64,000 nt of DNA, taken from the NCBI RefSeq assembly GCF_003334305.1, contig NZ_QOWS01000014.1; one strand, 5' to 3'. Source of the DNA: Escherichia coli. Lineage in GTDB: Bacteria > Pseudomonadota > Gammaproteobacteria > Enterobacterales > Enterobacteriaceae. Both the position numbers and the translations under genes were made by a program. The notes under the pieces are model-generated. The model was not told the origin of the DNA and made no database searches. It worked only from the letters and a program-made list of their open reading frames with translations. Each line of letters begins with the position of its first letter. The first letter of the stretch is position 1. Shown piece by piece: positions 9,088-48,514 of this stretch.

Positions 9088-10492
<1,405 letters not shown>

Positions 10493-12926: not shown

Positions 12927-13072
12927 TCATCTGATTTACAAAACACGCTAATTCGTCTTCCATAAACCGTGACGATTAAGAATTATACATAATGCGCTGC
13001 ATTGAGGAATTCCCTGAATGTGACGCAAATCACTTCAAAGAGTGAGCAACAGTCAGTATCATCATGTGAGTT

Positions 13073-13107
13073 AAACCCTCGCCGCCTGACGGTGAGGGTT
13101 TTCTTTT
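13073..13107 (+). terminator. hairpin plus T-tract in the rna-rnk intergenic region
   Basis: aaccctcgccg...cggtgagggtt inverted repeat followed by ttcttttggg; coordinates approximate. Confidence 0.5.
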
Positions 13108-13155
13108 GGGTATGTTTATCTGCGACACTCGCAGTACCGACGACATGGAGTAAAA

Positions 13156-18104: not shown

Positions 18105-18475
18105 CTATACTTCCTCCGTGTTTTCGATGAGATGTAAGGTAACCAATTTTTGCCGATTCGGCTAATGCGTTTCCATTATCAAATCGATAAGTTTTACCTT
18201 ACAACCTTCGTAAGACAACTTTGTGAACTTTGCACCGCCAGCGGCGATAAAAAGTAAAATGGCCCCCTTTCCAGGTGACCGTGTAATCTGAACTACCCTT
18301 TGGTATCTTCAGCGCCTGCCTGCAGGCTGAGGTGTTGCCCTTACAAATGCAACAACGACATGGATTACAACACCCTCATAAACAAAGGGCAATCACCTGA
18401 TCTAAGCTCTTACCTATGACAGTGATAGGTTATGCCTTTTACTCGACTTTTGCACTGACTGAAAAGGACAAATTA
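18105..18475. promoter_or_regulatory. ahpC / dsbG divergent control region (expected OxyR-regulated ahpC promoter)
   Basis: 370-bp intergenic region between divergently transcribed ahpC and dsbG; the OxyR site is placed from knowledge of the K-12 locus, not from a motif found here. Confidence 0.4.
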
Positions 18476-24900: not shown

Positions 24901-24934
24901 GCCGGATGCGGCGTGAACGCCTTATCCGGCCTAC
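24901..24934. repeat. REP (repetitive extragenic palindromic) element
   Basis: gccggatgcggcgtgaacgccttatccggcctac; near-identical copy at 46834..46867. Confidence 0.8.
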
Positions 24935-24954
24935 AAATGCTATCAACGCGCTCG

Positions 24955-25046
24955 GTCAGTCCCCTCGCCCCATCGGGGAGAGGGTTAGGGTGAGGAGGAA
25001 CCCTCGGCACTATGCCAACATTCGCCAACATCCCCCCTCACTCTGA
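24955..25046. repeat. GC-rich imperfect-palindrome intergenic repeat (second copy at 32370..32472)
   Basis: gtcccctcgccccatcggggagagggttagggtgagg matches the reverse complement of cccctcaccctaaccctctccccaaaggggcgaggggac at 32433..32472. Confidence 0.6.
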
Positions 25047-30987: not shown

Positions 30988-32163
30988 TTAATGCAATCCA
31001 AAAACGTTCAACATGGTAGAAAGTTTGACGCCTGTTTCGCGCCACTCACCCAACGGTGACGACGCAGGCACAATCCCCGCTCCGGCAAACAGACGCACCT
31101 GATTTTCCCGCAGCTTCGCGCAGCGGATGGTCACCACCCATTCGCCGTTACCTTCGCTGTCACACCAACCCACAATGCCGCCAAACAGTTCGCGGTCGAA
31201 TGGCTCCAGTTCAGCAATAACCTGGGTCGCGGCCTGATGCGGGAAACCGCTCAGCGCGGGGGTTGGATGCAGCAGACAGGCCAGAGTCAGTGCGTTTTCT
31301 TGCGAATTCGCTTTACCTTCAAAGGGAGTTGCGAGATGCCACAGCGTCGGCGTGGTAATCAATTGTGGAGAGGAGGGAACGTGTAACTCACTACTGCGTT
31401 CGCGCAGTACCTCTTTCATCGCCTGAGTCACCAGTTCATGTTCATGGCGATCTTTTTCTGACGCCAGCAGACGATTACCCGCTTCGCGATCGAGCACTTC
31501 ATCCGGCTGACGACGCGCGGAACCGGCTAACGGAATGGAGCTAAAACGCTCGCCGTCTTTACGTAGCAGCAGTTCCGGGCTGGCCCCCAGCAGGACGCCA
31601 CCATCAGCCAGCGGGACATGGAAGTTGTAACTAACCGGGTTTTGCGCAATCAACCGTTCCAGCAATACGCCACTATCAATGGCGGCGTCAGTGGTGATAT
31701 CAATCAATCGTGACAACACCACTTTGTCGACCTGCGGCGTGGCGGTAAGTGCGGCGGCGCGGGCAACCATCTGTTCAAACGTGGTTTGTTCAGGAATTGC
31801 CTGGCGTTCCACCACGTTCAGCGACTGGCTGCGGGTAAAACGGCGGGCTGAGGTCTGTTTTTCCTGGCGGGAGAACGACTGCCAGGATTCGGGAATATAC
31901 AGCGACGAAGGCTGACGTGGATCGAAGGGAATCGCCCCGACCATCACCGGATTTTTGATGCCCTGCGCTTTGGCATCGGCAAACAGCGCGGCGAGTTTTT
32001 GCTGGAAGGGACTGTCGGGCGAATCCCCGTTCACAGCCGGTTCATCGAAGCGGGCGAAACATCCTGACGTCGTAAAACTGCGGTACGGCGACATAAAGAA
32101 AAAGCGATTGGGCGCAAGTGTTGCCATGGTCTGCTGTACTTCCTCAGCCAGTGACGTATCCAT
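30988..32163 (-). CDS. entC: isochorismate synthase EntC
   Basis: ORF 30988..32175; start trimmed to the ATG giving [24 protein letters not shown] (391 aa). Confidence 0.92.
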
Positions 32164-32176
32164 ATCATCCTCCACA

Positions 32177-32214
32177 AAATGATAAAGGCTTTAATAATGA
32201 TTATCATTTATATT
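32177..32214. promoter_or_regulatory. Fur box(es) in the entC promoter (entC-fepB divergent region)
   Basis: aaatgataaaggctttaataatgattatcatttatatt contains the Fur consensus-like core ataatgattatcatt 14-50 bp upstream of entC. Confidence 0.75.
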
Positions 32215-32369
32215 TTCGGTCGCTAACCTAAAAGCAAACGCGCACTATGTCAACTCTTGAGGTAACGCAATCTGCAACTCGGGGTTGCATCTGGTTGTGG
32301 TTACAATAAAAATGAGAAGCATTATTGATGGATTCGCATAAGCGCAATGTGATGTCCTGCGCCGTTCTG

Positions 32370-32472
32370 CCCCCTCTCCCTTCCAGGGTGAGGGCTGGGG
32401 TGAGGGTTAATGTTCGCACCAGTGCTGGCTGTTCCCCTCACCCTAACCCTCTCCCCAAAGGGGCGAGGGGAC
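32370..32472. repeat. GC-rich palindromic intergenic repeat in the fepB leader (same family as 24955..25046)
   Basis: ccccctctcccttccagggtgagggctggggtgagggtta ... cccctcaccctaaccctctccccaaaggggcgaggggac; internal inverted repeats. Confidence 0.6.
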
Positions 32473-32537
32473 GGATTGTGCGCTTTGTCGAATTTGTCAT
32501 TACGCCCTTAACCTTATTAATAACAGGAAGCTGATTT

Positions 32538-33494
32538 GTGAGACTCGCCCCGCTCTACCGCAACGCCCTTCTATTAACAGGACTTTTACTTTCAGGAATA
32601 GCCGCAGTTCAGGCCGCTGACTGGCCGCGTCAGATTACTGACAGCCGTGGCACACATACACTGGAAAGCCAGCCGCAGCGTATTGTTTCCACCAGCGTCA
32701 CCCTGACCGGCTCACTGCTGGCGATTGATGCTCCGGTGATCGCCAGCGGCGCGACCACGCCGAATAACCGCGTCGCGGATGACCAGGGCTTTTTACGCCA
32801 GTGGAGCAAGGTGGCGAAAGAACGCAAACTGCAACGGCTCTATATCGGCGAACCGAGCGCCGAAGCCGTTGCCGCGCAAATGCCGGATCTGATTTTAATT
32901 AGCGCAACCGGCGGGGATTCGGCGCTGGCACTGTATGATCAGCTTTCCACCATCGCCCCGACATTAATCATCAATTACGACGACAAAAGCTGGCAGTCGC
33001 TGTTAACGCAGCTTGGCGAAATTACCGGGCATGAGAAACAAGCGGCAGAGCGGATTGCACAGTTTGATAAGCAACTGGCAGCGGCGAAAGAGCAAATCAA
33101 ATTACCGCCGCAGCCGGTCACTGCCATTGTCTATACCGCCGCTGCACACAGTGCCAATCTCTGGACGCCGGAATCAGCACAAGGGCAGATGCTGGAACAA
33201 CTCGGCTTTACGCTGGCGAAGTTGCCCGCAGGGTTAAACGCCAGCCAAAGCCAGGGCAAACGCCATGACATCATTCAGCTTGGTGGGGAAAATCTGGCTG
33301 CTGGGTTAAATGGCGAGTCACTATTCCTGTTCGCCGGTGATCAGAAAGATGCCGATGCGATTTATGCCAATCCACTGCTCGCGCACCTGCCCGCAGTACA
33401 AAACAAGCAGGTTTATGCGCTGGGAACCGAGACGTTCCGCCTGGATTACTACAGCGCCATGCAAGTGCTGGAACGACTTAAGGCGCTGTTTTAA
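32538..33494 (+). CDS. fepB: ferric enterobactin periplasmic binding protein FepB
   Basis: 318-aa ORF with GTG start, [26 protein letters not shown] signal peptide. Confidence 0.92.
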
Positions 33495-46833: not shown

Positions 46834-46931
46834 GCCGGATGCGGCGTGAACGCCTTATCCGGCCTACAAAAATCTTGCCAATTCAATATATTGCAGGACC
46901 ATGTAGGCCTGATAAGCGTAGCGCATCAGGC
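46834..46931. repeat. BIME-like pair of inverted REP elements downstream of fepA
   Basis: gccggatgcggcgtgaacgccttatccggcctac (46834..46867) and inverted gtaggcctgataagcgtagcgcatcaggc (46893..46931). Confidence 0.8.
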
Positions 46932-47710: not shown

Positions 47711-47863
47711 CTACTTCTTCGGTTCGTAAGCGAGAACAGCCTTAAACTCAATATTACGTTCCTTTACGGTGAACTCACACAGCGAGTCTCCGACCAGAAG
47801 CGTAAATCCCAGTACCGTCAAACACAGCACTATGACTGCCACAAGGGCATATTTCGTCAGCAT
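47711..47863 (-). CDS. hokE: Hok-family type I toxin (copy 1)
   Basis: 50-aa [50 protein letters not shown]; the frame is open a further 33 codons upstream to an ATG at 47962 (MKPQEIF...). Confidence 0.85.
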
Positions 47864-47939
47864 GTTTATATTGCCTCCATGCGAAGAAGGGACTACCATC
47901 CGAGTTGTTGAGGCTCGGAGTGGCAGCCCCAGGATTGAT

Positions 47940-48010
47940 AGAAATATCTCCTGGGGCTTCATCTTTCCAGACCTCAGAGTTAACCTGAAACCGGAAAGCT
48001 TCAGGCACCC
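47940..48010 (+). ncRNA. candidate Sok-like antisense RNA, copy 1 (position inferred)
   Basis: placed antisense to the mok-like start/RBS region by analogy with hok/sok architecture; stem-loop cctgaaaccggaaagcttcagg on this strand; no promoter verified. Confidence 0.25.
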
Positions 48011-48213: not shown

Positions 48214-48366
48214 CTACTTCTTCGGTTCGTAAGCGAGAACAACCTTAAACTCAATATTACGTTCCTTTACGGTGAACTCACACAGCGAATCCCCGACCAG
48301 AAGCGTAAATCCCAGCACCGTTAAACACAGCACTATGACTGCCGCAAGGGCATATTTCGTCAGCAT
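48214..48366 (-). CDS. Hok-family type I toxin (copy 2)
   Basis: 50-aa [50 protein letters not shown]; 2 aa substitutions relative to copy 1 (V8A, A42V). Confidence 0.85.
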
Positions 48367-48466
48367 GTTTATATTGCCTCCATGCGAAGAAGGGACTACC
48401 ATCCAAATTGTTCAGGTTTGGGTAGGTAGCCCCAGGGTTGATAGAAATATCGTCCTGGGGCTTCAT
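48278..48466 (-). CDS. mok-like overlapping leader ORF (copy 2), out of frame with hok
   Basis: 62-codon ORF starting MKPQDD at the position homologous to the copy-1 MKPQ start, ending inside hok in another frame, as in the canonical mok/hok arrangement. Confidence 0.3.
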
Positions 48467-48514
48467 CTTTCCAGACCTCAGAGTAAACCTGAAACCGGAA
48501 AGCTTCAGGCACCC
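48444..48514 (+). ncRNA. candidate Sok-like antisense RNA, copy 2 (position inferred)
   Basis: homologous position to the copy-1 candidate. Confidence 0.2.

Follow-up and report, generated by a model that had tools for sequence, protein, structure and literature searches.

A BoxC inverted pair within a polymorphic 186-bp palindromic cassette in the fepB leader of Escherichia coli

Locus and coordinates

The window, meaning the whole stretch of 64,000 nucleotides that was analysed, is the E. coli enterobactin region and runs in the reverse direction relative to the K-12 orientation. The element under study is strictly intergenic, being located between entC and fepB. The gene entS is convergent with fepB, and cstA and ybdD are found about 6-8 kb to the left of the entC-fepB pair. 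Window positions were converted to K-12 coordinates by K12 (NC_000913.3) = 624510 + (32538 - window). The features of the two intergenic regions considered here are collected in Table 1.

Elsewhere in the window, Rfam matches at the gathering score were obtained for the rnk leader, STnc70, ES036 and two sok antitoxin RNAs (window 13002-13110; 18249-18342; 46869-46910; 47855-48010; 48358-48514). The two sok antitoxin RNAs are about 500 nt apart and represent tandem hok/sok-type loci.

Table 1. Features of the entC-fepB and cstA-ybdD regions in window coordinates
Feature	Position	Strand	Remarks
REP/PU element (GCCGGATGCGGCGTGAACGCCTTATCCGGCCTAC), canonical	24902-24935		Adjoins the degenerate BoxC copy in the cstA-ybdD spacer
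Degenerate BoxC pair, cstA-ybdD spacer	24944..25045	+	Type A motif nearly intact (24962-24997), third block GGGTGAGGA; partner arm decayed
entC	ends 32163	-	
fepB promoter/operator	32301..32331	.	Published Fur footprint NC_000913.2 623,939-623,969; holds Fur box 1 and the -10 region
Imperfect-palindrome cassette (BoxC inverted pair and outer arms)	32322..32507	.	186 bp, present or absent as one block
Left outer arm	32326..32346	+	Pairs with right arm, 71% complementary (inverted repeat I2); single-copy
BoxC/PIT/TMECO motif type B, CCCTCTCCCTTCCAGGGTGAGGGCTGGGGTGAGGGT	32372..32407	+	K-12 TMECO #8, 624,676-624,641; exact string match
Central spacer between the two motifs	32408..32433	.	Apical part of predicted hairpin
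BoxC/PIT/TMECO motif type A, CCCTCGCCCCTTTGGGGAGAGGGTTAGGGTGAGGGG	32434..32469	-	K-12 TMECO #7, 624,579-624,614; exact string match
Right outer arm	32479..32501	+	Homologous to the type A unit flank at alx-sstT, ygfF-gcvP and gldA-yijF
Short leader, ancestral	32508..32537	+	AU-rich stretch TTAACCTTATTAATAAC, SD AGGAAG (32525-32530), spacer to GTG 32538
fepB coding sequence	32538..33494	+	GTG start, 318 aa

Identity of the element

A GC-rich element with internal inverted repeats had been proposed upstream of fepB in a first-pass annotation of the window, and such an element is present at 32366-32475. Its distance to the fepB GTG, proposed as about 65-170 bp, was measured as 66-168 nt. The two arms of the core, each of 41 nt, are 76% complementary and are separated by 28 nt. 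As RNA (121 nt) the core has a predicted fold of -69.5 kcal/mol, compared with -48.8 ± 4.0 kcal/mol for dinucleotide shuffles (z = -5.2), and none of the 200 shuffles matched this stability. The motif CCTCTCCC-N5-GGGNGAGGG occurs six times in the window, where 0.01 occurrences are expected. These six are both strands of three palindromic sites, two of them at fepB and one in the cstA-ybdD spacer.

Motif identity was judged by exact string match to Table 1 of Holder et al. 2015 (NAR 43:10126, PMC4666352), and both motifs of the fepB element have an entry there. They follow the three-block architecture CCCTC(T/G)CCC - loop - GGG(A/T)GAGGG - TTA (type A) or CCG-like (type B) - GGGTGAGGG, in a motif of about 34-37 nt, and they form an inverted pair with type B on the plus strand and type A on the minus strand, 26 nt apart. 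In the published catalogue, motifs 7 and 8 are one of five inverted pairs, each made up of a type A and a type B motif, with fepB and entC as the flanking genes at distances of 67/130 and 270/208 nt (Table S2, PMC4666352).

The same paper identifies the TMECO motifs with the BoxC repeats of the early 1990s (Bergler 1992; Leung 1991), and the PIT (potential intrastrand triplex) elements as BoxC rediscovered by Hoyne and Maher (2000). It counts 23 motifs in K-12, always in intergenic positions. A TMECO oligonucleotide formed an intrastrand purine-motif triplex in vitro (CD/NMR), which was not detected in vivo by DMS footprinting, and in earlier tests PIT elements had neither acted as promoter or terminator nor affected RNA polymerase (Holder 2015, PMC4666352). 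An independent survey likewise treats BoxC as a known E. coli family, of 56 bp and with 32 copies.

The element in the fepB leader is a catalogued BoxC/PIT/TMECO copy, whose location and strain polymorphism have been published; it is already known. Since it is a known BoxC copy inside a cassette that about half of E. coli strains possess, we regard the element as an ordinary one that has been described before. Further accounts of the family are reportedly those of Bachellier 1999 (for BoxC) and of Hoyne & Maher 2002 (for PIT).

An identity as a REP/BIME element was rejected, the sequence being unrelated to the REP consensus (GCCGGATGCGGCGTGAACGCCTTATCCGGCCTAC-like). When Rfam covariance models were applied at the gathering score, no family covered the fepB-leader element, and at E <= 1 only sub-threshold matches resembling miRNA-precursor hairpins were obtained for it.

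The cassette

The extent first assigned to the element, 32370-32472, holds for the core, but the natural unit is larger and comprises the complete 186-bp cassette. This unit is palindromic from end to end and is predicted to fold as a single hairpin of -91 to -96 kcal/mol. Within a leader RNA covering 32321-32560 (240 nt; fold -96.2 kcal/mol, z = -4.6), the cassette makes up one hairpin and the SD region is left outside. The same size of 186 bp is given in Holder 2015 for the collinear block of TM loci 7/8 (Table S5, PMC4666352). That catalogue labels the site merely as "5' of entCEBAH", whereas it is placed here at about fepB +1.

The trinucleotide TTA is found on each side of the cassette (32322-32324 and 32508-32510), and the boundaries are therefore ambiguous by 3 nt. 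For the leftmost 37 nt or so, no repeat was detectable elsewhere. A probe consisting of the left 49 nt matched 2755 genomes, with a median of one place each and 2763 places in total, and these genomes were only those carrying the cassette. The left arm is at least 99% identical in 2689 of these 2755 carriers.

Position in the fepB leader

A Fur box near entC, already noted in the first-pass annotation, is present at 32194-32211 and is Fur box 2 of PMC5020551. A second, fepB-specific Fur box 1, which that annotation did not include, is located at 32310-32328 and directly abuts the cassette. Fur box 1, AAAATGAGAAGCATTATT, overlaps the -10/-35 region of fepB (PMC5020551). The published footprint was transferred using a 778-nt shift from NC_000913.2 to version 3, and this shift was validated by the fact that it also puts the entC footprint over Fur box 2. 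The last 10 nt or so of the fepB Fur footprint are the first nucleotides of the cassette. It follows from this mapping that the first bases of the cassette lie within the operator, at its 3' edge and roughly at the transcription start. The fepB Fur footprint and Fur box 1 both map upstream of the core, in agreement with the earlier proposal that the element is within the transcribed fepB leader.

We take the transcription start of fepB in K-12 to be at about 32321. The start was reportedly mapped by Brickman in 1990, with a K-12 leader of 217 nt. The later work of Hook-Barnard, from 2007, is said to have included deletions in this 217-nt leader and reportedly describes features of it that hint at post-transcriptional control.

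The stretch between the element and fepB gave no sigma-70-like promoter, and no promoter-like or terminator-like site was found inside or after the cassette. The whole K-12 intergenic region, cassette included, drives an iron-regulated reporter in the fepB direction (PMC5020551), and therefore transcription reads through the cassette. This bears on the proposal that the cassette acts as a transcription attenuator or terminator in the leader and limits read-through into fepB, to which we give next to no chance. A strong GC-rich hairpin between promoter and gene is what such a device would offer, but the stem is not followed by a U-tract, a scan of 32100-32650 returned 0 terminator-like sites, PIT elements had no terminator activity (PMC4666352) and the full intergenic region supports iron-regulated expression toward fepB (PMC5020551).

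Through the cassette the 5' UTR is extended from about 31 to about 217 nt. The Fur box, the promoter, the AU-rich region and the SD are intact in carriers, and the match to the Fur-box consensus is 15/19 in filled K-12 as well as in the empty alleles. The short leader next to the gene is conserved in species without the cassette. According to Hook-Barnard 2007, as cited by others, the GUG start is compensated for by a translational enhancer, which is AU-rich and located 5' of the SD. RyhB has been reported to pair around the fepB SD, at the sole energetically favourable site in the 5' UTR. Both of these fall outside the cassette, in the ancestral part beside the SD.

The base at window position 32310, with which both Fur box 1 and the presumed -10 begin, is A in the window strain and G in K-12, S2 and O157:H7. 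This turns GAAAAT into AAAAAT and reduces the Fur consensus match of the window strain from 15/19 to 14/19.

An open reading frame is present at 32325-32534 (+), with TTG at 32325 and ATG at 32328, giving 68-69 codons. It stops 3 nt before the fepB GTG and has no SD. As a gene it was set aside, being a likely artefact of a GC palindrome that is poor in stop codons.

Distribution among strains and species

The cassette is carried by 2755 of 5426 complete E. coli genomes (50.8%), and the remainder (49.2%) are without exactly 186 bp. This gap of the empty allele was defined as exactly 186 bp by alignment to strain S2 and O157:H7. The strain comparison suggested in the first-pass annotation thus gives absence in 49% of E. 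coli, which goes halfway towards the refuting outcome named there, absence from most strains without an effect on expression. Named carriers include K-12, ECOR29 and O103 strains (phylogroup A/B1-type), and named non-carriers include O157:H7 and B2 strains such as Nissle and ZH063; these phylogroup statements are based on the named strains in the match lists and not on all 5426 genomes. For the fepB site in 56 strains, Holder 2015 lists 26 as unchanged, 17 as missing and 13 as mutated (Table S3, PMC4666352). The checks suggested in the first-pass annotation are thus essentially in the literature, with start mapping reportedly by Brickman in 1990, leader deletions reportedly by Hook-Barnard in 2007 and a strain comparison in this table.

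The short, empty leader was found in 75 of 80 other Enterobacteriaceae species, including E. albertii, Citrobacter and Salmonella, in a scan that left out the main E. coli representative, E. fergusonii, E. marmotae and E. ruysiae under those names. The distance between the fepB Fur box and the start of fepB is 10-39 nt in 75 of the 80 species, and in most of these 26-27 nt. The empty junction GAGAAGCATTA/ACT (GCATTA/ACT) is common to E. coli S2, O157:H7, E. albertii, two further Escherichia lineages, Citrobacter and Salmonella arizonae.

A derivative of 101 nt occupies the same site in E. whittamii, with the outer arms kept and the central 86 nt or so missing. It is predicted to form a hairpin of -47.9 kcal/mol, and its outer stem has been retained through changes on both strands. 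With filled and empty alleles in E. coli and this short form in E. whittamii, the locus is hypervariable. The uniformity of the cassette among carriers and the outer stem in E. whittamii are compatible with constraint, and equally with recency or palindrome repair.

An unrelated hairpin-forming insert of about 83 nt is present in Citrobacter amalonaticus S646 (locus L024, about 9870-9950), at the same junction, just behind the GCATTA of the Fur box. In other C. amalonaticus-like genomes the fepB leader is short. Because S646 carries an insert at this junction while its kin have the short leader, insertions may recur where the fepB leader starts.

Other copies of the repeat

The first-pass annotation had related the element to a repeat near cstA in reverse orientation. 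This relation is borne out, as about 103 nt of the cstA-ybdD copy can be aligned with the fepB element in reverse complement, one arm being nearly identical and the other decayed. A mutated third block is probably the reason why the copy is missing from the published list of TMECO motifs in K-12.

Using blastn, a median of 16 BoxC-like places per E. coli genome was obtained (range 1-28). Full-length relatives of similar size are found at alx-sstT, ygfF-gcvP and gldA-yijF, and these match the fepB copy from about 32359 to about 32500. The core motif is also present in Leclercia, Enterobacter, Kluyvera, Lelliottia, Silvania and other genera, so that the family is multicopy in E. coli, is represented a second time in the window and has members in other genera.

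B2-type strains, for example Nissle and ZH063, have just 1-3 BoxC-like places genome-wide. The counts suggest a repeat load that differs strongly between E. coli lineages.

The convergent fepB-entS spacer of Leclercia, Enterobacter, Lelliottia, Pluralibacter and Silvania contains one BoxC unit of type B, about 30-70 nt past the fepB stop (loci L019, L027, L034, L054, L057, L062, L071, L072 and L085). Sister species have REP elements or a plain hairpin in this spacer instead of BoxC, and Leclercia adecarboxylata NCTC13032 has three tandem BoxC units there.

Gain, loss and mobility

Judged from the outgroups, the cassette is a derived insertion and the empty site is ancestral, since 75 of the 80 other species have a short leader with a conserved junction. 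Holder 2015 (PMC4666352) reads the absences as deletions resulting from non-B DNA instability, whereas the outgroups used here indicate gain at fepB. A gain at this locus qualifies the published view of absences as instability deletions.

In the opposite scenario the long leader is ancestral and has been deleted repeatedly through non-B DNA (triplex or cruciform) instability. In its favour, BoxC pairs are described in Holder 2015 (PMC4666352) as subject to deletions and to a "palindrome effect". Further support comes from alx-sstT of ABU 83972 and hrpB-mrcB of strain 12089, both with an internal deletion between CCCTCTCCC repeats, and from the short form of E. whittamii, which resembles such a product. 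The scenario needs, however, an identical and nucleotide-exact excision of 186 bp in Salmonella, Citrobacter, E. albertii, other Escherichia and half of E. coli, and it is also opposed by the short leader and conserved junction of the 75 species. We therefore consider repeated deletion very improbable as the origin of the empty allele.

The empty site has a single TTA, compared with TTA on both sides of the cassette in the filled site. This TTA/TTA may be a 3-bp target-site duplication or mere microhomology. A second clean pair of filled and empty alleles with target duplication was sought at hrpB-mrcB, ygfF-gcvP, alx-sstT and gldA-yijF, and none was found at these loci. At hrpB-mrcB the boundaries of the filled and empty alleles are substituted and show no target duplication; the internal deletion in strain 12089 is of the palindrome-effect type. 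Strains that are empty at ygfF-gcvP lack the whole ygfF gene. The variants at alx-sstT are either an internal deletion or a replacement by unrelated DNA, and in ABU 83972 the deletion lies between two CCCTCTCCC repeats, matching the published palindrome effect. The gldA-yijF slot is occupied by a BIME/REP cluster in K-12 (L006 1463-1648, compared with L096), and 641 of the 5426 E. coli genomes have an inverted BoxC pair there, about 180 bp long and between identical flanks.

In LR-64-1 and similar strains (L095 348-962), alx-sstT has a different sequence instead of the BoxC pair. The spacer is about 217 bp longer and has GC-rich repeats of its own.

The cassette could also be a mobile palindromic module, a MITE-like unit of about 180-186 bp that transposes or is copied into AT-rich targets and duplicates TTA, in which case BoxC polymorphisms would be gains. 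The ancestral state assigned to the empty fepB site, the TTA/TTA flanks, the inverted-repeat character of the entire unit and the replacement of REP/BIME by a similar unit of about 180 bp at gldA-yijF in 641 genomes all point in this direction. The left terminal 37 nt are single-copy, however, and therefore no conserved terminus is common to other BoxC copies. Furthermore, the hrpB-mrcB alleles show no target duplication, a repeat of 3 nt counts for little, there is no associated transposase, and Holder 2015 found no link to mobile elements, the motif not being associated with transposons, phages or plasmids (PMC4666352). On balance we hold a mobile module to be possible but doubtful.

A MITE with conserved termini was tried as a description of the cassette and failed: the arms pair together, but the left terminus is single-copy and the termini vary between loci.

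On the E. coli plasmid NZ_CP074792.1 (155 kb), a perfect match to 38 nt of the BoxC core is found at 1627-1664. Overall, BoxC-like matches were obtained at a few dozen plasmid places; in the published account the motif is not associated with plasmids.

Effect on fepB

The element is most likely a tolerated passenger, that is, a BoxC inverted pair in a palindromic cassette of about 186 bp, which was gained at about fepB +1 and is co-transcribed. This reading is favoured because the mapped determinants of the leader are outside the cassette, the tests of PIT elements were negative, and half of E. coli as well as nearly all relatives are without the cassette and still retain the promoter, operator and RBS. 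The data show the identity of the element, its boundaries and polymorphism, the ancestral state and the predicted fold, and from them we infer both its near-neutrality and its gain by a copying or insertion process.

The sequence of events would be as follows. An ancestor of part of E. coli would have acquired the cassette at the TTA that directly follows the fepB Fur box, and the cassette would be co-transcribed with fepB, giving a longer 5' UTR. In the transcript it is predicted to fold into one long hairpin that starts about 5 nt from the 5' end. The Fur operator, promoter, AU-rich enhancer, SD and RyhB site would be left as in cassette-free strains. The passenger repeat would then be tolerated, with a modest effect on fepB mRNA at most, and would not constitute a dedicated regulatory device. 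At the same site, E. whittamii has a shortened derivative.

A hairpin this close to the 5' end could stabilise fepB mRNA. In a stronger version, the cassette is a regulatory 5'-UTR hairpin that alters the stability or translation of fepB mRNA, and FepB dosage hence differs in carriers. It might, for example, be a protective stem-loop against RNase E/RppH-dependent decay, or an RNase III substrate. The predicted stem is very stable, starts about 5 nt from the presumed 5' end and beats the shuffles, and in the short form of E. whittamii both strands have changed without loss of the outer stem. The abstract of Hook-Barnard from 2007 reportedly also speaks of leader features that point to post-transcriptional control. 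Against these points, the experimentally mapped determinants (the AU-rich enhancer and RyhB pairing) are in the ancestral segment by the SD, half of E. coli and 75 of 80 related species manage without the cassette, and the element has no Rfam family. Moreover, PIT elements were without promoter or terminator activity and without effect on RNA polymerase (PMC4666352). A regulatory hairpin is rated as unlikely, and a large regulatory role for the leader hairpin seems unlikely.

Gain and regulation might also be combined. BoxC pairs would then be gained as well as lost, each being a palindromic, self-contained cassette of about 180 bp that is copied into intergenic sites rich in AT, and the copy at fepB +1 would form a 5'-terminal hairpin that measurably changes mRNA stability or translation in carriers (A/B1-type) compared with lineages that have the 31-nt leader (B2, E). 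We find this combination quite improbable. If true, it would amount to a natural cis-regulatory polymorphism in an iron-uptake gene.

With the passenger reading as the preferred one, the practical meaning concerns the use of K-12 data. The 217-nt fepB leader of K-12 is a lineage-specific allele; in roughly half of E. coli (O157:H7 and B2 strains among them) and in nearly every related genus the leader measures about 31 nt. Results obtained with the K-12 leader should be checked before they are transferred to cassette-free strains. Additionally, the fepB locus offers a clean natural allele pair for asking what a transcribed BoxC hairpin does to mRNA. What is newly added here are the 186-bp boundaries at fepB +1, the derived state of the filled allele and the allele frequencies over 5426 genomes. 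Beyond such bookkeeping the significance is small, as the element, its position and its variability have been published and the K-12 leader has already been mapped and mutated.

Comparison with known systems

From the BoxC/PIT/TMECO elements of Holder 2015, the fepB element itself shows no difference.

REP/PU/BIME elements are like BoxC in being short, GC-rich palindromic intergenic repeats that are co-transcribed and occupy the same kinds of slots. The two families alternate in one position at gldA-yijF and in the fepB-entS spacer of other genera. REP elements differ in their size of about 35-40 nt, in their unrelated sequence and in having a RAYT transposase as partner, whereas BoxC has the three-block C/G/G architecture. 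We know of no enzyme for BoxC.

ERIC/IRU, NEMIS/Correia and RUP MITEs resemble the cassette as imperfect palindromes of 100-200 nt, which are intergenic and often co-transcribed. In some cases, among them ERIC of Yersinia and Correia of Neisseria, such elements change the stability of the mRNA or undergo cleavage by RNase III. The cassette has no sequence similarity to the ERIC-type MITEs, and unlike in these its termini are not conserved among copies.

Stabilisers of the ompA 5' UTR type share with the fepB cassette a stable stem-loop close to the mRNA's 5' end. For an ompA-type effect the stem must be no more than a few nucleotides away from the 5' end, and for the fepB cassette about 5 unpaired nucleotides are predicted, counted from the presumed transcription start. 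The fepB hairpin differs from the ompA stem in being far larger and in being derived from a repeat.
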